The notes under the pieces were generated by a model. It saw nothing but the letters and a program-made list of their open reading frames with translations, ran no database searches and had not been told where the DNA came from. From positions 6,818 through 40,002 of the forward strand of contig JAMDCW010000050.1 of NCBI GenBank assembly GCA_023489405.1: 33,185 nt of DNA, given 5' to 3'. Positions 3,395 through 33,184 of this stretch are shown in pieces; the stretch's first letter is position 1; every line of letters begins with the position of its first letter. Position numbers and translations under genes: made by a program. The DNA comes from Chloroflexota bacterium (GTDB lineage: Bacteria; Chloroflexota; UBA4733).

Positions 3395-4123
3395 ATGCAA
3401 CATGAAATGATGGAAATTCGCGAACATCCCCTCGTTACAGTGGATGTGGTCATCCTTACGATACAGCTCACTACCCTTAATGAAGGGGAAGAATGCCTAC
3501 AAGTGCTGCTTGTCCAACGTAAGCAGCACCCCTTTTGGGAACATTGGGCGATTCCTGGGGGCTTTGTTTTGCACAATGAACGGCTCGATGATGCTGCTCA
3601 ACGTGAACTCCGGGAAAAAGCTGGAGTATCGAAAGTCTATCTCGAACAGCTCTACACCTTTGGCGAGCCGGCCCGTGATCCCAGAGCGCGCGTTATTACC
3701 ATCTCGTATTATGCGCTCGTTCGGAGTAGCGATCTCACAATTCATGCCGATGAAGCGGGACTTACTGTTGCGTGGTTCCCCGTGACCGCGCTTCCTGAGC
3801 GTATGGCCTTCGATCATCGCACAATCGTCGAAACGGCCGTAGAGCGCGTACGTAGCAAAGTGGACTATGCCCCAATTGCTTTTCAGTTTGTTCCCGATTT
3901 ATTCACAATGGCAGAACTGCGCCACGTTTATGAAATTATCCTAGAACGTAAGCTGGATCCGGGGAATTTCATCCACAAAGTGCTAGCCTCGGGTCTAGTA
4001 GAGGCGACAGCTTTTCACCGCAGTGGAAATCGACATCGCCCACCGCGCCTGTATCGCTTTATAGGTCTACGTGAGGAGGCGGGCTTACACTCTACTCATA
4101 ATGTGAAAGGGAGGAGAGTATGA
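3395..4123 (+). CDS. nrtR: NrtR-family NUDIX/winged-HTH transcriptional regulator of NAD salvage
   Basis: VTVDVVI, WAIPGGFV, RELREKAG, LEQLYTFGEPARDPRARV, AFDH, FTMAELRHVYE and RPPRLYRF motifs. Lies directly upstream of pncA and pncB. Confidence 0.88.
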   Translation: MQHEMMEIREHPLVTVDVVILTIQLTTLNEGEECLQVLLVQRKQHPFWEHWAIPGGFVLHNERLDDAAQRELREKAGVSKVYLEQLYTFGEPARDPRARVITISYYALVRSSDLTIHADEAGLTVAWFPVTALPERMAFDHRTIVETAVERVRSKVDYAPIAFQFVPDLFTMAELRHVYEIILERKLDPGNFIHKVLASGLVEATAFHRSGNRHRPPRLYRFIGLREEAGLHSTHNVKGRRV

Positions 4124-4728
4124 GCGCTGCCCTAATTGTCGTCGATGTACAGCGTGATTTCTGTCCGGGAGGTGCGCTTGCAGTGCCTCGAGGAGATGAG
4201 GTTATTCCTACCCTGAATACGTACCTACGTCGAGCTCAGCAACATGGAATACTTGTGTATGTTTCTCGCGATTGGCATCCCCAACGATCTACACATTTCC
4301 AAGCCTATGGAGGACCGTGGCCAGTTCATTGTGTGCAAGAAACGGCGGGAGCAGCTTTCCACCCGACTCTGGAACTACCTAGCAATGCCGTTGTCGTCTC
4401 CAAAGGTATGGGAGCTACCGATGATGGGTATTCTGCTTTTGAAGCCCAAACGGATGGCGGGCTCTTTTTAGAAGATGCTCTCCGCACCGAAGACATCGAT
4501 TGCTTGTGCATTGGTGGTTTAGCAACTGACTACTGCGTGCGCGCCACGGTGCTTGAGGCTTGTTCCAAGGGATTCAGGACAATTCTGCTCCTCGATGGTA
4601 GTCGTGGGGTAAACGTTGCTCCAGGTGATTCCGAACGTGCCATTGTCGAAATGGTGCGAGCAGGCGCTTATGTAACAACACTCGAGCACATCGGAAAGCT
4701 TCAACCAGAGCTCGCGCCGGAGAGGTAG
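4120..4728 (+). CDS. pncA: Nicotinamidase/pyrazinamidase
   Basis: VDVQRDFCPGGALAV, DWHP, WPVHCVQ, KG...YSAF and GLATDYCV motifs. ATGA overlap with nrtR. Confidence 0.93.
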   Translation: MSAALIVVDVQRDFCPGGALAVPRGDEVIPTLNTYLRRAQQHGILVYVSRDWHPQRSTHFQAYGGPWPVHCVQETAGAAFHPTLELPSNAVVVSKGMGATDDGYSAFEAQTDGGLFLEDALRTEDIDCLCIGGLATDYCVRATVLEACSKGFRTILLLDGSRGVNVAPGDSERAIVEMVRAGAYVTTLEHIGKLQPELAPER

Positions 4729-4734
4729 CTTAGG

Positions 4735-6135
4735 ATGTCCTATAATCGCACTGCGTGGCGTCAAGACATCCACCCCGGCTTGCTTACTGACATGTATCAC
4801 CCCGATGCTGCCTACATAAGCTGGCTCAACGGCCGCAATGGAGTTGCTACTTTTGACCTGTATACACGAAAAGCGCCATTCGATGGCTCTTATCTACTAT
4901 TCGCTGGGTTAGAGCAAGCTCTAGAGTTCATACGAGATTTTCGTTATACACCTGAAGACTTGCGTTTTTTAGCCCAGATCCGTGATTATCACCCCGGTTT
5001 TTTGGAAGAGCTGGAAAGCCTCCGTTTCACCGGGGATCTCCTTGCAATGCCTGAAGGGTCAATAGCATTTCCTAATGAGCCATTGCTGCGTGTCACTGCA
5101 CCGTTTCGCGAGGCGCTGCTCGTTGAAGCTGGCCTCCTCAATGCGATCAATCTTGCCACGCTCATAGCGACAAAAGCGTCACGTATCGTGTATGCTGCCA
5201 GGGGACGTCGCGTCTCCGAGTTTTCTTTCCGGCGTGCCCAGGAGCCATTTGTCGTAGCGCGTTCAGCATTCATTGGCGGCTGTTCCAGCACCTCCTTCCT
5301 CGCAGCCGCATATCAGTATCGTCTCTTGGCCACTGGGACGATTCCCCATGCACTCGTGCAGATCTTCGAGGATGAGCAGTCAGCATTTGAAGCCGTAGCA
5401 CGGACATATAATCGCTACACGCTCTTGCTCGATACGTACGATGTGCAACGTGCGATTCATGTCGCTGTGGATGTCGCTCTTGCCACCCAGCGCGAATTAG
5501 GGCATACGCTTGCTGCTGTGCGCTTAGATAGTGGTGATTTGCTCAACGATAGCCTGCTCGTCCGGGCAGTGTTGGATGAGGCAGGGCTTGCGGAAGTCAG
5601 AATTCTTGCGAGTGGAGACCTCGACGAGTTTTCTATTGCTGATCTATTGGCGAACGGTGCACCAATCGACGGTTTTGGCGTTGGTACACACCTGGGTGTT
5701 GGCGCCGGATCGGTAACGCATGGCATCCCTGGAGGTTTCCTTGGTGGAGTATATAAGCTCGTACACTATGCCGATACTATTCAAGACGATCGTCCGCTGA
5801 TGAAACACGCCCCTGGTAAAGCAACGTGGCCAGGTAAGAAGGAAGTCTATCGTGTTGGACAGTATGAGCACGATGTTGTCGCCTTAGAAGCAGAGCCAGC
5901 TCCACCAAGAGCAACGCGACTATTGCGACCTGTAGTGCGTAATGGGGTAGTATTATCGGGGAGTCTACCCCCACTTAGCGAAATCTGGGAACTGGCTCAG
6001 CGTAATCTTCAATCATTGCCTGAGTGCTATCGTCTTCTCAAAGATGCAGCCGCCTACCCCGTGCAATTCAGCAGAGCACTGGAGAACTTGCGGAAGGAAC
6101 TTGCACATGAGGAAAAGACAGAGAACGGTGCATAG
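4735..6135 (+). CDS. pncB: Nicotinate phosphoribosyltransferase
   Basis: LLTDMY, EPLLRV, IATKASRI, RRAQ, GTIPH, LLDTYD, VRLDSGDL, ASGDLDE, GFGVGT and GVYKLV motifs. Confidence 0.93.
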   Translation: MSYNRTAWRQDIHPGLLTDMYHPDAAYISWLNGRNGVATFDLYTRKAPFDGSYLLFAGLEQALEFIRDFRYTPEDLRFLAQIRDYHPGFLEELESLRFTGDLLAMPEGSIAFPNEPLLRVTAPFREALLVEAGLLNAINLATLIATKASRIVYAARGRRVSEFSFRRAQEPFVVARSAFIGGCSSTSFLAAAYQYRLLATGTIPHALVQIFEDEQSAFEAVARTYNRYTLLLDTYDVQRAIHVAVDVALATQRELGHTLAAVRLDSGDLLNDSLLVRAVLDEAGLAEVRILASGDLDEFSIADLLANGAPIDGFGVGTHLGVGAGSVTHGIPGGFLGGVYKLVHYADTIQDDRPLMKHAPGKATWPGKKEVYRVGQYEHDVVALEAEPAPPRATRLLRPVVRNGVVLSGSLPPLSEIWELAQRNLQSLPECYRLLKDAAAYPVQFSRALENLRKELAHEEKTENGA

Positions 6136-6318: not shown

Positions 6319-7332
6319 ATGTATCACTTTTTGACAAGCGGCAAGCTTTCCAGCGGCGAGGCTGTTGACTTTGGCTATGTTGAGGCTCCTGATCTAGAGT
6401 GGTCTGGTCGGCTGCTCACCTTTCTCGCACACAAGGCGCCAGACTGGCGCTTTCACCTGGAGCGAGCCTTCGTGGACTCGCTTGATGGGTTACGCACTCG
6501 CTTCTATATCGCTACGGTGCATGAGGAACTGGTCAGCCAGGTGATGATTTCGGATGCACGCGGTTGTGGCATCCTGAGCCACGTGTTTACCGCGCCGCAA
6601 TGGCGGCGGCGAAACGCTTATCGCCAGCTCATGGCGATCCAGATGGAACATTGCGCAGCGAGCGGTATCAAGATCCTTACCCTGAGCACAGGCTTCAATA
6701 CCCACCCATATTGGATCTATCACTCGTTTGGCTTCCGTTCCATTGCGCCGGGATCTGGGGCAATGATGTGGAAGGTGTCGCCGGAGAGTGATCGCGAACT
6801 GCTGCAGCCTTCCGCAACTGTTACGACCCGAGCGCTGCGGTGGGAGGATTGGCCTGTGCTTAACGTCTCAGCAGTTCAGCCGGTGATGCCTTCTGAACCA
6901 TTGCCTCGATTCTCCACCATGGGGGTGAGTGGTCAGGGAAATCTCGAAGGCTCATTCATCTCTTTTCAGAGGCGAATACAAGCCTTTGATACAGAATTCC
7001 AGCGTGTTCAAGTGACAGAGCACGGCGCAGTAGGGGGATGGTGTTTCTTCAGCCCGGACCCTGGTTGGTTTAATCGCGTATGGCGGGCGGATATCTGTGC
7101 GCTGCCAGCATTTACGGAGATTTGCTCTCAGTCGCCTGATAGTATGTCCTGGCCAGAGGCGCCAATCTGGACGGTTACCACATCTGATAAGGGGAAAGCG
7201 CAGTGGCTTCATACCCTTGGCTTCTCTCAGCGCACTGTGCTGAAAGGTTGGTTGGAACGAAAAGGGTATCCTATGGACGCTGAAGTGTGGGAACGACCGT
7301 TTGTCTCAAAGAGCACGTTCCTCAATAAATAA
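6319..7332 (+). CDS. GNAT family N-acetyltransferase with C-terminal extension
   Basis: LSHVFTAPQWRRRNAY acetyl-CoA-binding motif A, followed by IYHSFGF. A possible degenerate second GNAT fold (LHTLGF) lies C-terminally. Confidence 0.75.
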   Translation: MYHFLTSGKLSSGEAVDFGYVEAPDLEWSGRLLTFLAHKAPDWRFHLERAFVDSLDGLRTRFYIATVHEELVSQVMISDARGCGILSHVFTAPQWRRRNAYRQLMAIQMEHCAASGIKILTLSTGFNTHPYWIYHSFGFRSIAPGSGAMMWKVSPESDRELLQPSATVTTRALRWEDWPVLNVSAVQPVMPSEPLPRFSTMGVSGQGNLEGSFISFQRRIQAFDTEFQRVQVTEHGAVGGWCFFSPDPGWFNRVWRADICALPAFTEICSQSPDSMSWPEAPIWTVTTSDKGKAQWLHTLGFSQRTVLKGWLERKGYPMDAEVWERPFVSKSTFLNK

Positions 7333-7427: not shown

Positions 7428-7832
7428 ATGACCACACCTCGTTACGAGCGCGAAATTCGCTCTATCCTTGATGGTATTTCGGATTTTCCGGGAGATTATT
7501 CATCACACAGTCACGGCATACCCCCTCGTAACCGGCAATCGCCTCGTTCATTGAGAGTACAGTTACTCAGTACGAGAGACGCGCTACTCCTAGCCGGTGC
7601 GCTCGTTATCTTTGCCCGTTTCGGGGGCATACTTATCGGAGCAGGTGCCAGTTTTCTCCTCGGTATTGTGGCGGCATTCCTCGTCATCTACGGTATCTTG
7701 CTCGCCTTCACCCAAGCATTGTTCGTTCAGAAGCATCCGCATATGTGGCGTGGACGGGTAATTGATTATCCACGTTCTACTGTACCGCCCTGGTGGTCGC
7801 GTCTTCAGCGTTGGTTCCGTCCGCGATACTGA
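7428..7832 (+). CDS. Small hypothetical membrane protein (2 predicted TM helices)
   Basis: GGAGG SD before the ATG, central hydrophobic stretch, basic/aromatic tail (WRGRVIDY...WWSRLQRWF). Confidence 0.7.
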   Translation: MTTPRYEREIRSILDGISDFPGDYSSHSHGIPPRNRQSPRSLRVQLLSTRDALLLAGALVIFARFGGILIGAGASFLLGIVAAFLVIYGILLAFTQALFVQKHPHMWRGRVIDYPRSTVPPWWSRLQRWFRPRY

Positions 7833-7901
7833 GAAGCTCATGTGTCAGCTCAGGTCGGAGAATGCTACACTGGTGCTAGGCTTGGGAGTAGGACATCATA
7901 C

Positions 7902-8198
7902 GTGAAGCTCGTAACGGTTATCACATACCCGGATGATGCAGCGACATTGATTGAGACTTTACGCCAATCAGATTTTCGTTCTACTCGTCTAGACACTGCT
8001 GGGGGCTTCTTGAAACGTGGTAATGCCACTGTCTTTATCGGTGTTGATAATGATCAAGTCGATGAAGTCCTGCGCATCATTCAAGAGACGTGTAAGCCCC
8101 ACACAGTCAATTCCTCTTCTGATCGTGCAGCGCGATCTGTCCGAACCTCGGCCGCAACTGTCATGGTCCTCAATGTTAGCCGTTTCGAACGGCTATAA
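7902..8198 (+). CDS. darA: Cyclic-di-AMP receptor, PII-like DarA/PstA (DUF970) family
   Basis: A GTG start at 7902 gives MKLVTVI..., then TRLDTAGGFLKRGNATVFIGV, VDEVLRIIQETC and the C-terminus ATVMVLNVSRFERL. Confidence 0.85.
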   Translation: MKLVTVITYPDDAATLIETLRQSDFRSTRLDTAGGFLKRGNATVFIGVDNDQVDEVLRIIQETCKPHTVNSSSDRAARSVRTSAATVMVLNVSRFERL

Positions 8199-8218
8199 GC
8201 GGAGAGGGGAGACGAGCA

Positions 8219-8623
8219 ATGGAAAAGACAAAAGTAATCCAGCTTACCGAAAGTGATTGCTGGGCGGTTGATTATCTCATTCGACACACCTGGAAAGATG
8301 ACGAGGGACCGTCAGGGGTTGCGAAAGGGTTATTGATCAAGGTCTTTAGCCTACTCAAGGAATTTGAAGCTGGCTCTCGTTCACCAACGCTTCCTGTCGC
8401 ATTGACAGAACGTGAATGTTGGTGTATTGATTTCAATATTCGACATGATCTAACGATGGGGCATGAACCTGTTGGTAAACACATCCTCTTACAGGTATTC
8501 GGTCTTATTCTCGAGTTTCAGAATGAGCAGGCGACCGAGGATTCTTTGCGAGGTGTAAATTTCATTCACCGCCCCGCCACAAATAACTTAGATACTCCTT
8601 ATGGCGATAGCACTGATCATTAG
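8219..8623 (+). CDS. Hypothetical protein made of two tandem ~45-aa homologous units
   Basis: Purine-rich SD (GAGGGGAG). Internal repeat LTExxCWxxDxxIRH...KxxLxxVFxLxxEF. Confidence 0.75.
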   Translation: MEKTKVIQLTESDCWAVDYLIRHTWKDDEGPSGVAKGLLIKVFSLLKEFEAGSRSPTLPVALTERECWCIDFNIRHDLTMGHEPVGKHILLQVFGLILEFQNEQATEDSLRGVNFIHRPATNNLDTPYGDSTDH

Positions 8624-8642
8624 CTCATAGTAGCAGCGACGC

Positions 8643-10316
8643 GTGAGTCATAACGCTATATCACCATGGTGGCCTTTCTTATTAGGGTGTCTGAGCGCTC
8701 TGTGCGGTTCGTTCGGTGGTCTTCTCGCTTTGCGCCTATTTCCTGATTTTCGCTCCCGCGAGAATAAATCTGGTGAGTATCGCCATGACGCGCATTTCCC
8801 TACACAGGTCAACTATCGCCTTCCTTCTGTTCTGGGTCCCGTCGTCACCCTTTGTGGGGCCTCCTTGTTTCTCGCCTCCGCATTCTACATACCTGTACTT
8901 CGCCGCCCTCTTCTCGTCATCGCTAGCGTACTCTTGGCGGAAGGCGTGCTTGGATGGGTTGACGACGTATGGAAGTCTCGCGGTGCAGGTCTTTCGGAGC
9001 GAGTACGGCTAGGTGCACAAGGCATCATCTTTATAGGGGTTGCCTCTGGCTTGTTCTGGTCCCAGGCTCCCTTGGCACAAGGCAGCCTGGGGAAACTATT
9101 CAGCGTGATCGGAGCAGTGATTTTCGTTCTCATTGTATTGTCTACAGGCTTCTCCGATGGAATTGATGGCCTCACTGGTAGCTTGACGTTTCTGAGCGGA
9201 ATAGGCTTCGTCGGGATTGGCATCTTTACTGGAAGCTTATTGCTACTGATAGAAAGCGCCATCCTCGTAGGAGTGAGCCTTGCCGTGCTCTTGCTCAATA
9301 TGCCATCGAACTGGACAAGAGGTAGCTCTGTGCACCGGCGTGCTCGGGCCTATATCGGCGATTGCGGCGCACTCATCCTTGGAACGCTCGTTGCTTTACC
9401 GCCTCTTCAAACAGGCAGCACGATATTCTTGCCTTTTATTTGTGCTGCCATAGCCGTGGAAGGTGGTAGCGTCTTCTTGCAGACAGGCGTCCTGACACCG
9501 CTCTATCGTCGCTGGGGACGGCTGAGCCGCTTCGCTCATGCGAAAACGTTCGTACCGCATGTCGAATATCCCCTCCCTTTTCTCGCCACTCCGTTTCATC
9601 ACCACTTCAATTTGCTCGGATGGAAACCTCTGACGGTTGTGCGCTTGCTCTGGTTCTTCCAGGCTCTGGGGATAACCTGGAGTGGTGTCATGCTGTTCGC
9701 TCCGGTAGAAGATCGTCCTGCCCTTTGGCTTTTTGGTATGGCTGGCTTAGTACTAGGGGTTTTTGCAATCGCTCTGTCGAGTAAGCGGATGATCGTGCGC
9801 GTCGAGTGTAGAGGGGCCCAGCAATGGCTAGTGATATCGCGAGGGAGTTTATTGCAAATTGGCCGCTGGCACTTGGAGCGCGAAGCCTTCCGATGCGAAC
9901 TGGCCTCGAACACGTCGAACGCTATGCTCTCTTACGTGGCTGTGATGCATCGCTATGATGCGTGGGCTTTTGCAGCCACTGCCGTGCTGCAGCAAGATCC
10001 ACGTCTCACTCTTGAGCTTGGTCAGCGTATTCGACCTCTGAGCATTATACTGCGCCCAGGTTTATCGCTCGCGCTGATTACCGCCGCCTATCACGAGTGC
10101 ATGCTGGATTCCCTTTTTGCAAGCTGGCGGCGAGCTTTGCGCGAAGTCTACCAAGAAGGACGCCTGGATGTCCTTCTCCAGGAGTGGAGCATGCTCCTTC
10201 ATCAACGAGGAGAAACCGCTCTTGCCGAAGCGGTAACTGCATATCAGACGACGTGTCCCGACACACTGGCCCGTGGATCATCGGTATTGAACGTGCCAGG
10301 ACGTACGGCTGTATGA
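8643..10316 (+). CDS. Divergent MraY-like polyprenyl-phosphate transferase (glycosyltransferase family 4) with ~175-aa C-terminal extension
   Basis: About 10-11 hydrophobic segments. GWVDDVWK, SDGIDGL, YIGDCGALILG and TPFHHHF match MraY motifs. Confidence 0.8.
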   Translation: MSHNAISPWWPFLLGCLSALCGSFGGLLALRLFPDFRSRENKSGEYRHDAHFPTQVNYRLPSVLGPVVTLCGASLFLASAFYIPVLRRPLLVIASVLLAEGVLGWVDDVWKSRGAGLSERVRLGAQGIIFIGVASGLFWSQAPLAQGSLGKLFSVIGAVIFVLIVLSTGFSDGIDGLTGSLTFLSGIGFVGIGIFTGSLLLLIESAILVGVSLAVLLLNMPSNWTRGSSVHRRARAYIGDCGALILGTLVALPPLQTGSTIFLPFICAAIAVEGGSVFLQTGVLTPLYRRWGRLSRFAHAKTFVPHVEYPLPFLATPFHHHFNLLGWKPLTVVRLLWFFQALGITWSGVMLFAPVEDRPALWLFGMAGLVLGVFAIALSSKRMIVRVECRGAQQWLVISRGSLLQIGRWHLEREAFRCELASNTSNAMLSYVAVMHRYDAWAFAATAVLQQDPRLTLELGQRIRPLSIILRPGLSLALITAAYHECMLDSLFASWRRALREVYQEGRLDVLLQEWSMLLHQRGETALAEAVTAYQTTCPDTLARGSSVLNVPGRTAV

Positions 10317-11377
10317 ACTCACCTCACTATGACGATCTTTCCCTTTTACTGTCGGATCCCCAGGTTGTACGCCTGCTCGGCATGCCTGGATCGCTTCAGC
10401 CCGATATCAAAGTCCTATCTTTAGGGAGGTTCTCGCGTAACGAAGTCTACCGGCTGACCGATCCTCAAAGTGAAAAGCCGGTGATCATAAAGATCGTGCG
10501 AAAAGGGACAGATCGGTTTTGGGAACACCATGTACGCCGTGAACATTGGATCCTCCGACTTCTGGAACAATGTGCACCGGAGCTCGCGCCTCATCCATAT
10601 GCCGTAGCGATCAATAGGGATTGGGGCGTGCTCTCGATGGAGATGTGTGCTGGCGATAACCTCGCTTACCTCTTGGAGAACGCATCCACTGTGCCGGCGC
10701 GTCAATCATTGCTAGCAGAAGCGCTTGGCGCATTAGCAATCCTGCACCGTATATTGCTGGAGAATAGCAAGATATTTGAGCGAGTCGTTTCTAGTATTGA
10801 GCTTGATGAAGTCACACCAGTCACGCTCCAGGCACGTTTTCATATTGCCCTACAACGCTTGTTTTCCACTTCGAAAGACTACATCGAGGTGCTCTGGCGT
10901 TCCCGTGGCGCCCTCACCGATGATCTATTCAGCGGTCAGGTCCAGGTCATTCACAATTCACTCGTACCATTGAATATTCTGAAAGAAGAAGAACAAGTTC
11001 GATTCATCGATTGGGAAACTGCAACCGTCGCCGCCCCCGAATGGGATCTCGCCGATCTGCTCTTCAATCCGTTCACTGCCCTACCGCCGGATGCTATCTT
11101 TGATCTCATTGCTCGTTCTTATCAAGGTCTATGGAATGCGCAGCGAACACTTGTTGCTGGGCTTTTGCGCTCTCTCGATTACGCGGCGAGCGCCACCCAA
11201 CAAGCAACGATTGCTGACAGTGACTACGCTGTGCGGTTAAAACAGCGCGCTGCCTGCTATCTTAACCACGCGCGGGAGCTTTGTTTCCAATGTGGTTGGG
11301 CTGTTCTGGGCGACTTTCTCGCTCGCGAGACTGCTCAAACACCTCAGTCAGATGGAAGTGTACCTCCCGCTCGCTGA
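10313..11377 (+). CDS. Aminoglycoside phosphotransferase/choline-kinase-fold protein with a degenerate catalytic loop
   Basis: ATG at 10313 overlaps the mraY-like stop (ATGA). NEVYRL, VIIKI, REHWIL, LAILH, IHNSLVPLNIL, FIDWE and PEWDLADL motifs. Confidence 0.78.
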   Translation: MNSPHYDDLSLLLSDPQVVRLLGMPGSLQPDIKVLSLGRFSRNEVYRLTDPQSEKPVIIKIVRKGTDRFWEHHVRREHWILRLLEQCAPELAPHPYAVAINRDWGVLSMEMCAGDNLAYLLENASTVPARQSLLAEALGALAILHRILLENSKIFERVVSSIELDEVTPVTLQARFHIALQRLFSTSKDYIEVLWRSRGALTDDLFSGQVQVIHNSLVPLNILKEEEQVRFIDWETATVAAPEWDLADLLFNPFTALPPDAIFDLIARSYQGLWNAQRTLVAGLLRSLDYAASATQQATIADSDYAVRLKQRAACYLNHARELCFQCGWAVLGDFLARETAQTPQSDGSVPPAR

Positions 11378-11450
11378 CTTGAGGCTCCTCAGTTATTGAG
11401 CGTATCATCACGGAGAGTGCGTCATCATTTGAAATTGAGGAAGTTTTCAT

Positions 11451-12272
11451 ATGACCGAGCGAGTCCTTCAACACGGAGAAATGCTAGCCCGCGATATAGC
11501 TAGCTATGAGGTGCCTAGGAGAACAGTTGCTTGCTGGTATCTTGGGCAGGCCTCAATAGTTCTGAAGTGTTCGGTGGGGATACTCCTCATCGACCCCTTT
11601 TTCAGTGAACATCCCGCGCGACTTTTCCCTCCACCATTACAGTGTAGCGAGATAGCTGATGTTACCTGGGTGTTATGTACCCATCATCATCTGGATCACC
11701 TTGATCCAGCTACCATAGGGCCACTCGCTCAGCGTTTCCCCTCGTGTCGTTTTGTGGTTCCTGAACCCCATATCCCGATAGCCATCACGTCTGGCGTCGC
11801 GATGGAGCGCCTCCATCCAGCAATAGTAGGTACATCAATCGAAGTTCCTGGCTTGAAGATCACTCCATTAAGAGCAAAGCATGAAGAGTTTGAAGTCAAC
11901 GAACGTGGCAATCATCTGTATGTTGGTTATATAGTCGAAGTTGACGGCTTACGCCTTTTTCATTCTGGAGATACCGTAGGATTTGATGGCCAAGCAGAAG
12001 ATCTCGTACCCTTCTCTCCCCACGTTGTCTTCCTCCCGATAAATGGCCGCGACTGGGTGCGCAATCGCCGCAACATCGCCGGCAATATGAACTATCGGGA
12101 GGCCCTAGATTTAGCGCACGCTGTGAAAGCCGGTGTAGTTGTTCCTCTTCACTACGATCTCTTCGGAGGGAATACCGAAAACCCGGTTTTCTTCGTCGAT
12201 CACCTCTACCGGACCTTTCCGGCACAAGCTTTCAAGATGCTTGCTGTTGGTGAACGTTTTCTCATTGGCTAG
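11451..12272 (+). CDS. Metallo-beta-lactamase-fold hydrolase (UlaG-like)
   Basis: WYLGQAS, LIDPFFS, THHHLDHLD (HxHxDH), FHSGDT, LPING...GNM and VPLHYDLF motifs. Confidence 0.88.
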   Translation: MTERVLQHGEMLARDIASYEVPRRTVACWYLGQASIVLKCSVGILLIDPFFSEHPARLFPPPLQCSEIADVTWVLCTHHHLDHLDPATIGPLAQRFPSCRFVVPEPHIPIAITSGVAMERLHPAIVGTSIEVPGLKITPLRAKHEEFEVNERGNHLYVGYIVEVDGLRLFHSGDTVGFDGQAEDLVPFSPHVVFLPINGRDWVRNRRNIAGNMNYREALDLAHAVKAGVVVPLHYDLFGGNTENPVFFVDHLYRTFPAQAFKMLAVGERFLIG

Positions 12273-22233: not shown

Positions 22234-25200
22234 ATGTGGCTAACGCGCTATGCGCTGCGTAATCCTATTGCCGTCGCTGTCATTTGTCTCCTTTTGGTTG
22301 TGATCGGAATCTATGCCTACTTTACCCTCGGGATTAGTCTTATTCCGAACGTTACTTTCCCTGGGGTCACCGTCGTAACAACTCTTCCAGGAGCGGACCC
22401 GCAAACGATCGAGACACAAATTACCAAGCCTATTGAAGATGCTATTGCGCAACTGAGCAATGTCGACACTATTACTTCGACTTCTTCAGAAGGGAGAAGT
22501 GTTGTCAATGTCCAGTTCACGTCATCGGCGAATGTTGATCTTGCTCCGATTAATGTCGAACGCGCGGTTAACTCTGTGCAGAATCAGTTCCCTGCAGGAA
22601 CAAACGCTCCGAGCATTCAACAGTTCAATTCGAGTGCCATTCCAGTCGAAGTCATAACATTGTCAGGCCCCCAATCAGCGAATGAGTTACAACAGCTTGC
22701 AACGAACCGCCTCCAGCGACCATTTCAAGCCCTACCAGGAGTACAAAGCGTGCAAGTTGTTGGTGGCTCCGCACGGGAAATCCACGTAGAAGTCAATGTC
22801 AACAAGCTGGTAGGGTATCAGATCGGCCTCAATCAGATTCAAACGGCTATCGCCTCGTCGGAATTGCAACAGTCAGCCGGCATACTTCCTAGTGGCCGGA
22901 TGGATACATCGGTGGTGTTCGATGCCTTATCGGCGACGCCTCAACAACTGAAGAATATTGTTGTTAGTTCTACTTCCCGTGGAAACGTGAGGCTTGGTGA
23001 GCTTGCGACGATTAGTGATGGCTTCAAGAAGGATACATCTTTTTTTAGAGTTGACGGAAAGTCAGCTATAGCTCTCATTGTAAGGAAGCTCTCCTCCGCT
23101 AATACGCTCGTGGTAAGCCATGAGGTTGACCGGGAAATCAAGCTTCTAGCTCCTTCGTTGCCTGCTGGGACTAAGCTAAGTGTGGTTTTCAGCCTAGCTG
23201 ACTATACCCAGCAGTCCTTCAATACTGTACAGCATACACTTATTGAAGCGATCATCTCTACAGGACTTATTCTCCTGATTTTTCTTCATACATGGCGTAG
23301 TACGCTCATTGTGCTTGTAGCTATTCCCACATCGCTGCTGACTGCTATAGCAGTAACTTTCTTCCTTCACTATGACCTCAATCTTTTTACGATGCTGGCA
23401 TTGACCCTGAGTGTTGGTATCCTCGTTGATGATAGTATCGTTATTCTTGAAAATATTTATCGCCATCTCTTTTTACGGGAATTGCCGGTTTTTGCCGCAA
23501 TAAATGGCCGTAGTGAAATAGGTTTTGCTGCTATTACTATTACGTTTGTTGATGTGGTAGTCTATGCTCCTATTGCTTTCATTCCCAATGTTGCCGGTCA
23601 GATCCTTGGCCCTTTCGCTTTAGTAATCGCTAGTGCGACATTGACCTCACTATTGGTCTCATTTACCCTCACACCTTTACTGGCCAGCCGTATCTTAACT
23701 CCCGAGGTAGCGTTGCAAGAAGGAAGCGGCTACCTTGCCCGTTTTGGACGTAAGTGGAATCACGGTTTCGCACAGCTCACAGCATTGTACAGTCGTACCC
23801 TGGATTGGACACTAACCGGATACTGGGTGAAATTTGGTCCGTTGCGTCTAAGAGCACGCTTCTTAGTCGTGTTAATTGGTGTCTTCACAATCCTTGTTGC
23901 TATTGGTTTCGTTGCCAGTGGCAGCATTGGAGTAGACCTTTTCCCTACCGGTGACCAGAGTGAAGTAGATGCTACACTGACTATGCCACCTACTACAGCG
24001 ACCCGAGAGACTGAGCGTGTCGTAGGACAGATGCTCACCAAAATACATCAGTTCCCAGAAGTGCGTGAGTATTACAGTGATGTCACTAATAATACTGCGC
24101 AATTGACATTCTTACTTGTTCCCATCAATGATCGTAAACGCTCATCTGCTCAGATAGCTGAAAGTATTCGTAAAAATCTGGACCCCCACCTTCCGGGTGA
24201 GCATTTTACTACCAGCCTGCCCAATGCTTTCGCCTTTAGCAGTGGCAGTGGTGGTCAAGATCTCCAAATTGCTATCAGAGGTGATGATCCTACGATCCTG
24301 TCTGAGCTGACTACTCGAGTAGAGCAGACGCTGCGAAATATTCCAGGAGCAGTGGCTATTACCAGTTCATCGGATGTTGTGCAGCCCCAGATGGTCTTCC
24401 ACTATAACCGCGCTGAAGGGAGTGATCTCGGAATTTCCGCTCAGCTTGCCGCCCAGACACTTGCGCTAGCCGTGAATGGCCAGGTAGTGAGTGAGTTCCA
24501 GCAGCCTGGGCGGGCCAATGTCGATATTCGACTCCGTGCAGACCAGGCATTTCGATCATCTCCACCCCGGCTTGTCACGCTGCCACTCTTGTCATCGACG
24601 GGTCAATTCGTTCAGCTAGGACAGGTCGGATCATTCGTTTCGCAAACAGCGCCCTTGAGTATCGACCATTATAATCGCCAGCGCAGCATTACTGTGAGCG
24701 CGTCGGTCGAGGGGCGGCCTGTTGGATCCGTAATCGCGGATGCCAGTACGGCAATCGCCAGAATCCCCGTACCACCAGGCTACTCTATTCAGCTTGGTAG
24801 CCAGTCACAAACCTCTATGACGACCTTCGCCGACCTTGGCAAAGCCCTCCTTATTGGTATCTTGCTGGTGTATATCCTCATGACCTTCCTATTCCGTTCT
24901 TTTACACTGCCGTTTTCTGTGCTTGTTTCCCTACCACTCGCGTCATTCGGTGCTCTTGGTGCTATGGTCCTCACTAAAACGCCATTTACCTTATTTTCTG
25001 CCCTCGGCTTTTTCCTACTGGTGGGCCTCGTAGGTAAAAACGCCATTCTCCTCGTAGATTACACCCATACGCTCAGAAAACGCGGGAGAAGCCGGACCGA
25101 TGCCCTACGAGAGGCTGGACCGATACGGTTGCGCCCTATCGTTATGACGACTACGTCTGTTATTGTGGCGCTCGTTCCAGTAGCGATTGGCATTGAAGCA

Positions 25201-25485
25201 GGGTCAGAACTGTTGAAAGCTTCAGCGATCGTGTTAATCGGCGGGCTGCTTACCTCAACGTTGTTGACACTGGTCTTTGTGCCGGCAATGTATACGTACT
25301 TTGACGATCTTCAGGAGCATCTACTGCATCGTTGGCGGCGGCTTACTTCCCCACGGGAACTTACTGAAGAGGAAAAAGCTTTTCTGTCGGTGAAGCACGA
25401 TGGAACCGCCGTCGCTAACAACGATGGATACGCCCTACCCCAGGCTCACGATGATGAAGTCGCACTGAAAGTACTAGGAGAATGA
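22234..25485 (+). CDS. RND-family efflux transporter permease (AcrB/SwrC-like)
   Basis: PGADPQTIETQITKPIE, proton-relay motifs GILVDDSIVILENI, VGKNAILLVD and RLRPIVMT. 1083 aa with 12-TM architecture. Confidence 0.95.
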   Translation: MWLTRYALRNPIAVAVICLLLVVIGIYAYFTLGISLIPNVTFPGVTVVTTLPGADPQTIETQITKPIEDAIAQLSNVDTITSTSSEGRSVVNVQFTSSANVDLAPINVERAVNSVQNQFPAGTNAPSIQQFNSSAIPVEVITLSGPQSANELQQLATNRLQRPFQALPGVQSVQVVGGSAREIHVEVNVNKLVGYQIGLNQIQTAIASSELQQSAGILPSGRMDTSVVFDALSATPQQLKNIVVSSTSRGNVRLGELATISDGFKKDTSFFRVDGKSAIALIVRKLSSANTLVVSHEVDREIKLLAPSLPAGTKLSVVFSLADYTQQSFNTVQHTLIEAIISTGLILLIFLHTWRSTLIVLVAIPTSLLTAIAVTFFLHYDLNLFTMLALTLSVGILVDDSIVILENIYRHLFLRELPVFAAINGRSEIGFAAITITFVDVVVYAPIAFIPNVAGQILGPFALVIASATLTSLLVSFTLTPLLASRILTPEVALQEGSGYLARFGRKWNHGFAQLTALYSRTLDWTLTGYWVKFGPLRLRARFLVVLIGVFTILVAIGFVASGSIGVDLFPTGDQSEVDATLTMPPTTATRETERVVGQMLTKIHQFPEVREYYSDVTNNTAQLTFLLVPINDRKRSSAQIAESIRKNLDPHLPGEHFTTSLPNAFAFSSGSGGQDLQIAIRGDDPTILSELTTRVEQTLRNIPGAVAITSSSDVVQPQMVFHYNRAEGSDLGISAQLAAQTLALAVNGQVVSEFQQPGRANVDIRLRADQAFRSSPPRLVTLPLLSSTGQFVQLGQVGSFVSQTAPLSIDHYNRQRSITVSASVEGRPVGSVIADASTAIARIPVPPGYSIQLGSQSQTSMTTFADLGKALLIGILLVYILMTFLFRSFTLPFSVLVSLPLASFGALGAMVLTKTPFTLFSALGFFLLVGLVGKNAILLVDYTHTLRKRGRSRTDALREAGPIRLRPIVMTTTSVIVALVPVAIGIEAGSELLKASAIVLIGGLLTSTLLTLVFVPAMYTYFDDLQEHLLHRWRRLTSPRELTEEEKAFLSVKHDGTAVANNDGYALPQAHDDEVALKVLGE

Positions 25486-27362
25486 AGAGAATAAGCGCTC
25501 CGTGGAGACTGTTTTCGGTTGCTGGTTTGGTCGTGATAGTACTGACAAGCTGCGCTACCCAGGCTACGCCTGCCGTCAAGACTCCCGCAACGCTGGTGCA
25601 AGTTGCTCCAGTACAGCGAACAACGATTGTTGCCACCTATAGCTTTACAGGCTCTGTCGTGCCACTATCATCGGTTAATGTTCAGCCTCGCCAGGGCGGT
25701 CGGATCATCACAATGTCAGTGTCGGTTGGGCAAACTGTTCATACCGGCCAAGTTTTAGCAGAGCTCGACCATACCCAGCAGCTTCTCGCAGTAGAGCAGG
25801 CAAAAGCGGCTCTCGAACAGGCACAGGCAAAGTTAGATGCTCTCAAGGCTGGTCCACGTCCGGAACAGGTAGCTCAAGCGAAGATCGCGGTCGAGATGGC
25901 TAAGTCGAAGCTTCAGGCTATGCTCAATCCGCGCCCAGAGACGATCGCCCAAGCTCAGGCACAGCTCACCATCGCGCAACAAAACGTGCAAGCGCTTCTA
26001 ACAGGACGGCCGCAACAGGTCGCGCAGGCAAAGCTTGCGCTTGATCAAGCAAAACAGCGCCTAGCGACTATCCAAGCAGGTCCACGCCCTGAGGTTGTTG
26101 CTCAGGCCCAAGCTCAACTGACTTCTGCCGAGGCACAGCTTGCTGCGCTGCGCAATGGACCGACTGCTGCTGACTTGGCTCCGTTACAGCAAGCTGTAGA
26201 AGTAGCGAAAAATCAGCTCAACGCTGCCCAGATCTCGCGCGATGCAACCTGTGGCCAGGTAGGAAAACCTGCGGGATTTGGTAATGTTGGTACCCAGGCC
26301 GCTTGCAACGCTGCTAATGCGCAGGTCAATGCCGCTCAATCAGCAGTCAATGAAGCACAGGCGGCTCTGGCAAAAGCGGAACAGTCCCCAAGCAGTACTG
26401 ATCTCCAACGAGCGCAGGCAGCGGTAAAAGCGGCTGAAGCTGCTCTTCAGCAAGCTGAACATCCGTATACAGCTCAAGACTTCATACAAGCGCAAGATGC
26501 TGTCAGCACTGCAGAACAGCAACTGGCAATTGCTGAGCAACCTGGATCTGCAGAAGATATCGCAAAAGCGCGAGCAGTCGTGCAAGAGAACGAAGCAGCT
26601 CTCGCTCTAGCTCAACACCCCGCTTCGGCACAAGACATCCAGCAAGCTAAGCTCGCGGTGCAGAATACAGAACAGCAGCTTGCTCTCACCGAACATCCAT
26701 ATACTGCACAAGATGTCGAACAAGCGCAAGCAGTAGTTGATCAAGCCAGGGCTGCCTACGATCAAGCTGAACAGAACCTGAAAGATATGACAATTACTGC
26801 ACCAATCAGCGGCGTTGTAACACAGAAGAACTTTTCTCGAGGAGCCCTCGTTGTCCCATCGAACACCGTACTTACTATCGCAAGCCCGCAGGACGATATC
26901 GAGATCAATGTTCCAGCGACAGAAATCGCTGGGGTTGCTGTTGGCACGCCTGCGTTGATTGCAGCGAGTGAATCCTCTCCTAGCACAACGGTCTCTGGCA
27001 AGGTTACGTCCGTAGCACCGAGTGCCAATGCCAAGAGCCGGGCATTCCTGATCAAAGTGATGCCGAGCGCAAAATCTGTGCACCTTCTTCCCGGTACTTT
27101 TGCAACGGTCAGCCTGACACCACTGAAGCACACCAATGTTCTTGCTGTCCCGAATGATGCTATCGTCCAGCGACAGGGTAAAGCCGTAATTTTCATCGTC
27201 GAAAATGGCCTTGCTATGCAGACCGCTATCCAGACAGGCATCAGTAACGGAACAGTCACGGAAGTTCTGTCAGGGCTCAAAGTGGGCCAGGAAGTGATTA
27301 CTCAGGGACAAGATACGCTTGTCAATGGCGATCACATCACAGTGGCGGCAGCGGCAGGCTAG
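25482..27362 (+). CDS. RND periplasmic adaptor (membrane fusion) lipoprotein with an extended repeat alpha-hairpin
   Basis: Lipobox LTSC, lipoyl halves (VSVGQTVHTGQVLAELD and ITAPISGVV), LLPGTFA and TEVLSGLKVGQEVI. ATGA overlap with the permease. Confidence 0.9.
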   Translation: MKRISAPWRLFSVAGLVVIVLTSCATQATPAVKTPATLVQVAPVQRTTIVATYSFTGSVVPLSSVNVQPRQGGRIITMSVSVGQTVHTGQVLAELDHTQQLLAVEQAKAALEQAQAKLDALKAGPRPEQVAQAKIAVEMAKSKLQAMLNPRPETIAQAQAQLTIAQQNVQALLTGRPQQVAQAKLALDQAKQRLATIQAGPRPEVVAQAQAQLTSAEAQLAALRNGPTAADLAPLQQAVEVAKNQLNAAQISRDATCGQVGKPAGFGNVGTQAACNAANAQVNAAQSAVNEAQAALAKAEQSPSSTDLQRAQAAVKAAEAALQQAEHPYTAQDFIQAQDAVSTAEQQLAIAEQPGSAEDIAKARAVVQENEAALALAQHPASAQDIQQAKLAVQNTEQQLALTEHPYTAQDVEQAQAVVDQARAAYDQAEQNLKDMTITAPISGVVTQKNFSRGALVVPSNTVLTIASPQDDIEINVPATEIAGVAVGTPALIAASESSPSTTVSGKVTSVAPSANAKSRAFLIKVMPSAKSVHLLPGTFATVSLTPLKHTNVLAVPNDAIVQRQGKAVIFIVENGLAMQTAIQTGISNGTVTEVLSGLKVGQEVITQGQDTLVNGDHITVAAAAG

Positions 27363-27380
27363 AGACAGAGCTGATATCGG

Positions 27381-27407
27381 ATAGAAGATCGTCGTAAGCT
27401 CTTCTAT
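27381..27407. repeat. 8-bp inverted repeat between the adaptor and LysR genes
   Basis: ATAGAAGA-N11-TCTTCTAT; could be a terminator or an operator. Confidence 0.4.
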
Positions 27408-27444
27408 GCTAACTGGCTACAGCTTTGATAGATTGTAGTGTCAC

Positions 27445-28389
27445 GTGTTGACAATAGCCGAATTGCAGGTCTTTGACGCTGTCGCTCGCTATCATCACTT
27501 TACTCGCGCAGCGGAAGAGCTTGGTATTGCCCAACCATCAGTAACTTATCATGTTCGGGAGCTTGAGCGTCATCTAGGCGTCCAGCTTGTAGAGCTTGTT
27601 GGACGGCGAATACGCTTGACTGATGCAGGAGAACGTTTGGCTGTTCGTGTTGCTGCTATCCTAAGCGATCTTCACGATCTTGATGAGGAGATGCTCGAGT
27701 ATCAAATCGGAGCGCGTGGCCAGTTGCGGTTGGGGGCAACCCGCACTGTGGGAGGCTATGCTCTTGCCCCGGCGCTTTTGCAGTTCTATCGGCGTTTTCC
27801 TAAAGCTTCTTTTTCTCTCCAGATCGATAACACGGTAGCGATTGAGCGACTCTTGCTTGAGCGTCAGCTTGATCTAGCGCTCGTAGAATGGGAGGTGATA
27901 AGTCCTGACTTACTGGTAGAGCCACTGCGGCAAGATGCCCTACTGCTCGTGTGTTCTCCTGAACACCACCTAGCACATCAAGCAGGTGTCGATATCACGG
28001 AGCTCAGCGGTCAAGCATTCGTCATGCGGGAACGCGGTTCCGGGACGCGAGCACTAGCAGAGAAGGCACTTGCCCCAGTCCTCCACTCACTGCGGATTGT
28101 CTTGGAAATTGCCGAACCTGAGGCAATCGTTCGCGCTGTTCAAGCAGGGATCGGTCTGTCGTTTCTCTCGGAAACAATCGTCCGACATCATCTCCAGGAA
28201 GGTACGTTGGTTGCTATTCCTCTATCTCACGTAGATCTCGTTCGGAACTTTTCGCTCGTTCGTGTTGCTGATCGTCGTGCGTCAACAGTAGTGGCGGCGT
28301 TTATAGAGATTGTCCGAAAAACGCTGCGAAACAATAGGCACGCAGCGAAAACTCCTGAAGGCATATCTAATGGTAAGAGGGTTTTATAA
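27445..28389 (+). CDS. LysR-family transcriptional regulator (CysL/CmpR-like)
   Basis: HFTRAAEELGIAQPSVT HTH, LTDAGE, MRERGSGTR and VQAGIGLSFLS motifs. Confidence 0.93.
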   Translation: MLTIAELQVFDAVARYHHFTRAAEELGIAQPSVTYHVRELERHLGVQLVELVGRRIRLTDAGERLAVRVAAILSDLHDLDEEMLEYQIGARGQLRLGATRTVGGYALAPALLQFYRRFPKASFSLQIDNTVAIERLLLERQLDLALVEWEVISPDLLVEPLRQDALLLVCSPEHHLAHQAGVDITELSGQAFVMRERGSGTRALAEKALAPVLHSLRIVLEIAEPEAIVRAVQAGIGLSFLSETIVRHHLQEGTLVAIPLSHVDLVRNFSLVRVADRRASTVVAAFIEIVRKTLRNNRHAAKTPEGISNGKRVL

Positions 28390-28411
28390 CCCCAAGGTTA
28401 CAAAACCCTCT
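28376..28411. terminator. Strong hairpin between the convergent LysR gene and the small ORF; probable bidirectional terminator
   Basis: AGAGGGTTTTATAACC-CCAA-GGTTACAAAACCCTCT, 15 of 16 complementary (the mismatch is G-U on the minus strand). U-tract is weak. Confidence 0.5.
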
Positions 28412-28428
28412 GCGCAGTTCGAGCGTTA

Positions 28429-28593
28429 CTACGCTTGCCATAAGCGTCGACGGACGAAATTGATCAATCGAGTAGGAAGATTAGATATCTGCTTACGCTG
28501 CAACTTTGCATACCGAGCGATACGGTGGCTTTCTGCCGCTTCACGTAGTCGTTCTTCATAAATTGTCTGTCCGATACCAACATAAGGTAGCAC
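28429..28593 (-). CDS. Small hypothetical protein, 54 aa (below the ORF-track cutoff)
   Basis: SD AAAGGAGGAGG, then GTG: MLPYVGIGQTIYEERLREAAESHRIARYAKLQRKQISNLPTRLINFVRRRLWQA*. Followed by the hairpin. Confidence 0.7.
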   Translation of the reverse strand: MLPYVGIGQTIYEERLREAAESHRIARYAKLQRKQISNLPTRLINFVRRRLWQA

Positions 28594-28681
28594 TGCTGCC
28601 TCCTCCTTTCAATCCCATTTTCTCAATTGCTATCCTCCGTGTAATTTGGAGACGGGCGCCACGAACACTATGAATAGTTAG

Positions 28682-28697
28682 GCGTCTTCTAAGACGC
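28682..28697. promoter_or_regulatory. Perfect palindrome, candidate operator in the divergent promoter region
   Basis: GCGTCTT-CT-AAGACGC. Confidence 0.35.
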
Positions 28698-28792
28698 ACT
28701 CTGTATGAAGGACATCGGTCGTAAAGCTGTTATGTAAGAGCAGGCGTACCGTCCTCCCCGAGTAGCTCTTTAGGGGGCGGACATGCGTAGCC

Positions 28793-31729: not shown

Positions 31730-33184
31730 CTAATGAACGCGCGAGCCATTCCCATACGATCCTCCAGGCCTGACCACGGTAACGTGCGTAAGCGTATACG
31801 TAGAGCGCCCATCCCCGAGAAGCAGACGCTGGCCTGTCTGTAACTGATACAGTCCCACGACGATCTGGTAGGTGCCGGGTGCTGTGCTGGGAGGGACGGG
31901 GACTGCCAGATGATCCGCCACCACCTCATCGGCTACCCAATCATTGGTGGGGAGCTTTCCGCTCTGCGGTCGTGCGTCAAGCTGGAAGACCAATCGACCG
32001 CTCGCATCAAGCGCATGGAGGAAGACGGTGTAGTCCGCTGTTGGATTGCGGACTGCCTGCCATTGCAACGTTATGTCTAGCGACTTTCCCGCTTCTACGT
32101 GGTCCGGGACAGCGGCGCTGAGCAGCCGGATCGTCTGGCCAAAGGTGACGTTAGCGCGAAGAGGCAGCGGTGCCGGTAGGGGCGTTTGTCCACCGCTCGA
32201 TCGGACTACGAGGCGGGCTACGACGGGTTGCGGCTCCGGCTGCCCGGTGACTGTCTGCGCATGGAAGGGCTGGTTGGGGTGACCACGGGGATAGACGTAG
32301 ACAGAGAGCAGGGCGAGGCTCGGTGAAGGAGCATCCGGTACAACCCTCAACGTGACGACGTTGCTCACATTGAGTCCTGAGCGCCACTCAGGCGTAGGAA
32401 TGGTGCCACCAGGCTGAAGATCGCGCTGGGCGAGCAGCGTTCCAGTAGGACTACGAAGCTGGATGGAAAACGCCTCACGGACCGCCGCACGCTGCTCAAC
32501 ATGCCAGAGCAACGTCACCGTAAATGGTTCGCCTGGCGCAAGAGGGTGTGCTGGGACAGTCACCTGCGTCAGCCGTAGGGTGCCATACGTCAGTTGGGGA
32601 TCTACCGACTGCACGCGGTTAGCTGGTGTGGCAGCGACAACGGCTATATGATCAATATGAGCCTCTGGTGCGCCACCGTCGACGCCGAGATACACACCGG
32701 TGCGCAAGTTGACCAGGCGAATGTCCAGATTGTACTGACCTGGTGGCACGTTCGCTGAGAGTGGCACATTCAGCGTATCCTCGATGACTTCGCCAGGAAC
32801 CCAGTCGCTCGTTGGCAGCAAACCACCGTGCGGTATGGAAGTAACGGCGAATAGCTGATATCCATGGCTATCGCGCCCAATAAGCGTGACAGCGTAGCTT
32901 CCATCTGGTGGCTTCTCCACCGACCACTGCGTGGCTACCTGCAGGATCCCACCAGCAGGTACCTGTGCTGGTACCCCCACGCTCGTCAAGACGAGACGTC
33001 CGCCGAATATGATACCGGCCCGCTGCGGCAAGGGTGTCGGAGTAGGAAGAGGCGTGGTGTCTCGCACGGTATATGCCTCTACTACCGGGTCACCGAGAGA
33101 CCGACCGCTCGCAGTGGTAGCCGGAATACGCTGATCAGGTAGATATTCCGGATATACAAGGACAGGAAGGCGCCCAAGAAAAGG
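31730..33184 (-). CDS. C-terminal part of a large protein with three or more tandem Ig-like beta-sandwich domains; 5'-truncated by the window edge
   Basis: The frame stays open to the window end. Three repeats of ..G..L.v.l.W...(Y.V)...PT..W..G..v.D....P...PG.Y, resembling C-terminal domains of Chloroflexota membrane glycosyltransferases (inference). Confidence 0.7.
   Translation of the reverse strand, partial: PFLGRLPVLVYPEYLPDQRIPATTASGRSLGDPVVEAYTVRDTTPLPTPTPLPQRAGIIFGGRLVLTSVGVPAQVPAGGILQVATQWSVEKPPDGSYAVTLIGRDSHGYQLFAVTSIPHGGLLPTSDWVPGEVIEDTLNVPLSANVPPGQYNLDIRLVNLRTGVYLGVDGGAPEAHIDHIAVVAATPANRVQSVDPQLTYGTLRLTQVTVPAHPLAPGEPFTVTLLWHVEQRAAVREAFSIQLRSPTGTLLAQRDLQPGGTIPTPEWRSGLNVSNVVTLRVVPDAPSPSLALLSVYVYPRGHPNQPFHAQTVTGQPEPQPVVARLVVRSSGGQTPLPAPLPLRANVTFGQTIRLLSAAVPDHVEAGKSLDITLQWQAVRNPTADYTVFLHALDASGRLVFQLDARPQSGKLPTNDWVADEVVADHLAVPVPPSTAPGTYQIVVGLYQLQTGQRLLLGDGRSTYTLTHVTVVRPGGSYGNGSRVH

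Follow-up and report, generated by a model that had tools for sequence, protein, structure and literature searches.

The locus at positions 7428-12272 of the window, the whole analysed stretch of 33,185 nucleotides in contig C71 of assembly G000 (completeness 57%; its named relatives are Chloroflexota), carries six co-oriented genes on the (+) strand, one of which encodes an MraY-like protein of 557 aa. MraY, an essential enzyme of nearly universal occurrence, has long been pursued as an antibiotic target, and it is usually compact, without soluble domains. The question raised by the locus is whether this long form is an MraY paralog, as the initial annotation proposed, or the enzyme that makes lipid I in its lineage, and what the APH-fold protein encoded directly behind it does. 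On balance, we favour the reading that the lineage uses an extended housekeeping MraY with an attached regulatory pseudokinase. What is new is a variant of the essential MraY with an unexpected, conserved pseudokinase-like partner.

The extended MraY and its place in wall synthesis

The distribution of the gene was surveyed in one draw of 301 Chloroflexota genomes. The long form was called with its own profile at E 1e-40 or better, and canonical MraY with TIGR00445 at E 1e-50 or better. The long form was found in 72 genomes and canonical MraY in 192, of which 189 exceeded the TIGR00445 cut-off; 37 genomes had neither and none had both. No canonical mraY above the cut-off was observed in any of the 73 long-form genomes (the 72 and G005), and the TIGR00445 cut-offs call mraY absent in 72/301 Chloroflexota genomes which carry the long form. 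In G009 and G021 the long form was the sole PF00953 match. The window genome has two PF00953 genes, the second of which scored best as WecA-like and clustered with WecA-like proteins. Its division and cell wall (dcw) cluster, located mid-contig on C87, showed rsmH, an ftsL-like gene, murD, ftsW and murG with no mraY, and mraY was likewise not found in the dcw clusters of G003, G004, G014, G107 and G155; the G203 stretch showed murG alone and is uninformative on a dcw mraY. At the locus itself neither dcw genes nor tmk were annotated among the 28 window open reading frames (ORFs) scanned, in agreement with the initial annotation.

MurF was present in 40/41 and MurG in 41/41 of the genomes tested (40 long-form genomes and G001). 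As both enzymes are kept in long-form genomes, the substrate of MraY is made and its product is used. The MraY-like gene is not a paralog and is most likely the lineage's only MraY; it was the only MraY-type gene found in the 57% complete assembly and in its lineage, contrary to the paralogy first assumed and in line with a condition that the initial annotation had itself named as refuting its proposal. True paralogs exist within the long-MraY clade, as two copies were observed in each of G032 (L024:7784-9811 and L025:7792-9642) and G222, which belong to one family. Named Dictyobacter, Ktedonobacter and Thermosporothrix genomes, all from cultured strains, carry the long form and lack the APH gene. 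Peptidoglycan was shown chemically in a Dictyobacter species, according to the excerpted text of PMC12453558. These cultured genera make the APH-less long MraY testable now, including the nucleoside-inhibitor sensitivity of its remodelled pocket.

The extended MraY gene (8643-10316, +) was assigned by its Glycos_transf_4 domain (PF00953, 50.6 bits), its motifs and its AF2 fold. In the AF2 model (pTM 0.80), a phosphoglycosyl-transferase membrane core (residues 1-354) is followed by an extra helix, a beta-sheet (383-435) and a TPR-like helical tail (437-532). E. coli MraY (8g01) aligned with the core over 299 residues, giving Z 31.2 and a root-mean-square deviation (rmsd) of 3.0, and the top Foldseek matches were all MraY. 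DPAGT1 came near MraY as a fold match (Z 28.3), and fold alone leaves the specificity unfixed. Window residues D107, D108, D240, K111, S276, Q280, P317, H319 and H320 map onto MraY positions. In E. coli numbering, D115, D116, D267, K119, D195-G196, N257, S303, P323 and H325 were kept in 14/14 long forms, Q307 in 12/14 and H326 in 11/14, and 10 WecA-like controls deviated from the MraY type at K119, S303, Q307 and P323. In the portion of PMC6606608 consulted, the three aspartates form the essential DDD motif, the inhibitor pockets are lined by loop E together with T75, N190 and F262 (Aquifex numbering), and TM9b/loop E is placed in the cytoplasmic active site of MraY; the mapping from Aquifex to E. 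coli residues was made in the present analysis.

Alignment with canonical MraY and WecA located an insertion in loop D (N219-D240; 9297-9362, +), and alignment with canonical MraY a second one in TM9b/loop E (Q280-F318; 9480-9596, +). The loop D span was 22 residues in the window protein and 18-23 in 14/14 long forms, compared with 11 in 9 canonical Chloroflexota MraY, 16 other MraY, WecA and 12 of the MraY-APH fusion proteins described below. The loop E span was 39 residues, against 18-24 in canonical MraY and 31 in fusions. The long-form loops thus exceed the canonical ones by 7-12 (loop D) and about 20 (loop E) residues. The tail resembled TPR proteins weakly (Z 6.4-7.5), with sub-threshold Pfam TPR matches in P0071 and P0108, and an Atlas search with it gave no usable match.

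Besides the fold, the long form shares with canonical MraY the DD and GD aspartates, DGxDGL, Q307, P-x-HHH, a linkage to murE or murF and the filling of the MurF-to-MurG gap. It differs from canonical MraY (about 320-360 aa) in its length, loop D/E insertions, loss of N192, cytoplasmic beta-sheet and TPR-like tail, non-dcw position, far-below-cut-off score and separate clade. WecA/TagO-type GlcNAc-1-phosphate transferases have the PF00953 superfamily and the aspartates in common with it, but WecA-like proteins show H at P323, have no K119 or Q307, and form a separate clade which holds the second PF00953 gene of long-form genomes. With the long-form HMM, canonical MraY scored 75-109 bits and WecA-like proteins 16-48 bits. 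From its motifs, its modelled fold and the hole that it fills in the pathway, the 557-aa protein is very probably a housekeeping MraY making lipid I. It would move the phospho-MurNAc-peptide of the UDP-linked precursor, a product of MurF, to a polyprenyl-phosphate carrier, and the resulting lipid I would then be used by MurG.

The APH-fold partner and its fusions

The APH-fold protein (354 aa; 10313-11377, +; Pfam APH, 44.9 bits) is encoded directly behind the extended MraY with an ATGA overlap. The APH profile matched 27/301 survey genomes, all of them long-form (27/72) and belonging to three families; 26 copies were located directly behind the long mraY and the remaining one was separated from it by contig ends. 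In two families the APH gene sits between mraY and murF. Searching the full library with the MraY profile recovered proteins of 925-1013 aa, of which 10/11 have both PF00953 and PF01636, and 11/11 match the APH HMM (E 3.5e-29 or better). A search with one such fusion gave 85 clusters: both domains were present in 67, PF00953 alone in 15 and PF01636 alone in 3. An organism was named for 5 fusion clusters, all Armatimonadota, and another search gave one more from Armatimonadota. The fused protein has a length of ~970 aa; hhalign placed the window MraY family, tail included, on its N-terminal part (E 1e-63) and the APH family on its C-terminal part (E 4.9e-38). An HMM built from the TPR region of the fusions matched 12/21 test proteins, the window protein not among them, but hhalign does align the region. 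In the metagenome scan for fusions, one fusion-like locus was seen, cut at a contig end; the other matches were short, with 29-43% identity to the MraY core (two loci read).

Their fusion in Armatimonadota ties the MraY-like and APH genes together functionally. The APH protein is probably the split-off C-terminal domain of such a fusion, and the observed fusion and adjacency suggest that it binds MraY and acts on it as a partner. The long forms and fusions would make up a distinct extended MraY clade whose architecture joins an MraY core, a beta-sheet, TPR-like helices and an APH-fold domain. Two further architectures were seen. P0103, P0105 and P0108 (645-685 aa) form a third clade with MraY, beta-sheet and TPR-like tail and without an APH domain, and P0067 (940 aa, a single representative, which may be a chimera) is a long MraY fused to an NB-ARC domain.

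The window APH-fold protein keeps K60, E77, N221 and D233-W-E235, and shows Ser216 at the position of the catalytic Asp. Its degenerate catalytic loop, H-N-S-L-V-P-L-N (10952-10975, +), aligned to H-G-D-L-A-P-S-N of corramycin phosphotransferase. The catalytic Asp of H-x-D-x-x-x-x-N was replaced by Ser or Gly in 17/17 distinct split copies, and Glu occupied this position in 84/84 parsed fusion-family proteins (91 tried); the catalytic-loop Asn changed to His in most fusions. Across 37 split and fused sequences K60, E77, D233 and E235 of the ATP/Mg site were invariant, as was a set of arginines. Since the ATP/Mg residues are kept and the catalytic base is lost, the APH protein most likely binds nucleotide without phosphotransfer. 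With the catalytic Asp missing, the gene probably does not encode the active kinase that was first annotated, and an AmgK-like recycling kinase was set aside for the same reason. APH/choline-kinase-like phosphotransferases (PF01636), among them the resistance kinases of the capuramycin and corramycin types, share with the window APH the fold family and the K, E, N and DxE motifs; unlike them, the window-type APH has S, G or E for Asp and is tied to MraY or fused with it, not to a biosynthetic cluster.

Binding nucleotide without phosphate transfer, the APH protein could tune the synthesis of lipid I, either allosterically or through a recruited regulator. Because Ktedonobacteria and two other families keep a long MraY without it, APH is dispensable for catalysis. 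By analogy with the MviN pseudokinase, we give about even chances to the APH-fold protein being a non-catalytic nucleotide-binding regulator of MraY. Mycobacterial MviN (MurJ) is, like the long MraY, an essential peptidoglycan membrane enzyme with a cytoplasmic kinase-fold domain lacking the catalytic Asp, and this fused pseudokinase (ActPs3 family) is dispensable for synthesis, recruits an inhibitor and is described as a regulator (PMC12599244, in the part available). The comparison is an analogy only, as MviN is another enzyme and its domain belongs to the Hanks-type kinase family, whereas the partner here is APH/choline-kinase-like. According to the same part of PMC12599244, the MviN pseudokinase cannot bind ATP, whereas the APH-fold partner keeps its ATP/Mg residues.

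The invariant Lys, alphaC Glu, D-x-E and arginine set of the 37 sequences could also be explained by an active APH domain. The MraY role would then be the same, and APH would use base-free chemistry (carboxylate activation, or phosphorylation of the precursor or lipid carrier) and hand its product to an MraY adapted to the modified substrate. The place of the gene between mraY and murF in two families and the remodelled substrate loops of the long MraY agree with this, as do beta-alanine and ornithine in a Dictyobacter wall (PMC12453558, as excerpted). However, the catalytic position is variable (S, G, E), the loop Asn is His in most fusions, and Ktedonobacteria, a cultured group with an unusual wall, are without the APH gene. 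G026 and G211 showed no APH match either, although 17/19 genomes of their family have one. We regard the active-domain explanation as rather unlikely.

Among PDB sequences, the APH profile matched corramycin phosphotransferase best (E 2.9e-8), and the positions that contact the inhibitor, N190, T75 and F262 (Aquifex numbering, from the consulted portion of PMC6606608), are altered in the long form. Both would fit a self-resistance cassette against uridyl-nucleoside antibiotics, which the initial annotation had named as its alternative, with a spare insensitive MraY and an inactivating phosphotransferase. We consider this highly improbable, because the gene is single-copy and fixed over whole families, its distribution is not patchy, no second MraY is present to make it a spare, and the phosphotransferase is without its catalytic Asp. 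The window also holds no biosynthetic cluster, and the GC of the locus is like that of the rest of the window.

Several observations weigh against an extended housekeeping MraY with a regulatory pseudokinase. The window protein scored 41.5 bits on TIGR00445 against a cut-off of 192, and the best long form scored 140.5 bits. The conserved N192 was lost in 14/14 long forms (G, D or S); it was present in 12/12 fusions, and T73 was replaced in long forms and fusions alike. The loss of N192 together with the low TIGR00445 score indicates that the substrate of the long form could differ. In a quick tree (65 rows from a subset of the available proteins, rooted on WecA-like proteins, with long branches), the long forms (SH-aLRT 100) and the fusions (99) were joined at 84, outside crown MraY (99); in an earlier, first tree the split was three-way and the clade was left unplaced. 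By topology alone the extended clade appears as a third lineage beside MraY and WecA, a position that agrees either with an old separate clade or with long-branch attraction. The 72 long-form genomes fall in 8 families, hence they represent few lineages and not 72 independent events. murF was not found in G000, a 57% complete assembly. The long-form genome G246 (L151, C22) has a heavily frameshifted canonical murF-mraY-murD stretch of 69% GC, which may be contamination or a relic. In 45/72 long-form genomes, among them the family that clusters with the named Ktedonobacteria, the APH match was absent, and the Glu at the catalytic position of the fusions could still serve as a base.

Neighbouring genes and a possible link to c-di-AMP

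The six genes were located where the initial annotation had put them; its family labels were borne out by Pfam, and its gaps and overlap by the ORF coordinates: 20 bp between darA and the orphan gene, 19 bp between the orphan and the mraY-like gene, and the ATGA overlap, with outer gaps of 69 and 73 bp. Their conservation was counted in the best 80 of 167 related loci found with an alignment-based scan of genome contigs; a single-protein scan of genome contigs gave no related loci. murE was just upstream of the long mraY in 50/80 loci, aph was downstream of it in 8/80 and murF further downstream in 6/80. The MBL-fold metal-dependent hydrolase gene (11451-12272, +; Lactamase_B_2, 76.9 bits) had a counterpart beside the long mraY in 0/80, and its G004 orthologue (58%) is on a separate contig from the long mraY. 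The MBL hydrolase is an incidental neighbour outside the conserved unit. darA and the orphan were beside the long mraY in 4/80 loci, all of the window's family, and in 0 of the other 76.

In the four same-family genomes with a match (4/4), the membrane gene, darA, the orphan and the long mraY were in constant order, and aph was behind the long mraY in both same-family loci whose contigs reach that far. The six genes are not a single module and reduce to a conserved mraY-aph pair with a family-level prefix. From the one cell-envelope module first proposed, the envelope role and the tie of mraY to aph (by fusion) remain, and the six-gene unit is lost, given the counts for the MBL gene (0/80) and for darA with the orphan (4/80).

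A second lipid-carrier pathway had also been proposed: together, an MraY paralog, a kinase and the MBL hydrolase would build or modify a surface glycan. A GT4-type glycosyltransferase ahead of the long mraY in 5/80 loci, the low TIGR00445 score and the placement of the long form outside crown MraY point in this direction. It is nevertheless very unlikely, as no canonical mraY is left for the housekeeping job in long-form genomes, their second PF00953 gene groups with WecA-like proteins, and the MBL gene is unlinked.

Other gene orders were observed around the long mraY. A Lon protease gene was directly upstream of the operon in 3/4 same-family relatives (L019:4639-7011, L020 and L021:7314-9776). 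In G014 (L023:2557-9528) and in L041, L057, L063, L068 and L088, the genes behind the long mraY-aph pair encode a MurF fused to alanine racemase, a TIM barrel similar to xylose isomerase and a second MurF; two MurF matches were also present in many other long-form genomes.

The family-level prefix begins with a small hydrophobic, probably membrane protein (7428-7832, +) of unknown family, which gave a single sub-threshold Pfam match. Its orthologues (38-43% identity) occupied the same position in 4/4 same-family loci, as the first gene of the family-level operon. darA (7902-8198, +; GTG start behind AGGA) encodes a 98-aa homologue of the DarA/PstA-like PII-fold receptor of cyclic di-AMP (c-di-AMP), with CdAMP_rec (PF06153) at 74.8 bits. 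Its product matched S. aureus PstA (4d3g) at E 4.5e-13 with an intact GGFLxxGNxT binding motif, the motif it has in common with DarA/PstA. It passed the PF06153 cut-off and scored 78.4 on NCBIfam DarA, below the cut-off of 140; it also differs from DarA/PstA in being shorter and in its gene context.

The orphan (8219-8623, +) has no Pfam family and consists of two beta-alpha-alpha repeats. Its halves aligned with 19/47 identities (E 1e-11), which confirms the internal repeat described earlier as real. Its identity was 71-78% within the window's family, where its neighbours showed 34-65%. A fold search gave no convincing match (one at Z 9.6 with an rmsd of 8.1, the rest <=5.3), and an Atlas search gave only matches under 0.9. 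The orphan was also found in 10 genomes of four other families, 9 of them with canonical mraY (L250-L257 among the loci), and none of the 8 loci read had darA or a long mraY close to the orphan.

At the family level, the operon has been extended by darA, the orphan and the membrane gene, and gating by c-di-AMP is possible in the window's family only. There, DarA and the repeat protein might couple c-di-AMP to MraY-APH, and the five-gene operon would exert turgor-responsive control of lipid I; this is compatible with the extended MraY and its pseudokinase. The order of the membrane gene, darA, the orphan and mraY and their short gaps (about 10-30 bp between darA, the orphan and mraY) in G000 and 4/4 same-family loci are consistent with such coupling, as are the intact binding motif and the presence of cdaA-cdaR (cdaA being the c-di-AMP synthase gene) in G000. 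We consider it doubtful, since darA and the orphan never lay near a long MraY outside these four loci (0/76), 9 of the 10 genomes of other families that have the orphan carry canonical mraY, and neither gene is included in the fusion. Tentatively, a broader picture may be drawn of a second, ancient MraY class in Armatimonadota and several Chloroflexota lineages, whose lipid I step would be gated by a nucleotide-binding pseudokinase through the TPR-like linker and enlarged loops, with an additional c-di-AMP input in the window's family, by way of DarA and the repeat protein.

Published work and other features of the window

No paper on the extended MraY/APH architecture was found by title or abstract, in a search whose coverage left out most subscription journals. 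The part seen of a family-wide MraY tree names only Ruminococcaceae and Treponema as divergent MraY (bioRxiv 10.1101/2022.11.30.518518), TIGR00445 served a dcw-gene survey of Dehalococcoidia only (PMC10608941, in the available extract), and MraY does not occur in the main text of the pseudokinase review PMC12599244. In databases the fusion is annotated as 'phosphotransferase' or MraY, and the split form as 'hypothetical' or generic PNPT. An MraY with a fused or split pseudokinase, if true, would give a direct handle on regulating the first membrane step of wall synthesis.

Promoter and terminator scans of the window gave chance-level results only. A murT-gatD pair (lipid II amidation) lies at 63-2205, ~5 kb upstream of the locus, and none of the 80 related loci showed such a pair near its long mraY. 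An NAD salvage operon, nrtR-pncA-pncB (3395-6135), is followed by a GNAT gene (6319-7332). Downstream, the stretch 22234-31504 encodes an AcrB-type RND pump, an HlyD-type fusion protein, a LysR regulator and an XRE-NB-ARC-TPR regulator. On the (-) strand, an ORF at 31730-33184 runs off the end of the window; it encodes at least 445 aa, lies in a higher-GC stretch and showed weak Nis1 and ML-domain matches only.

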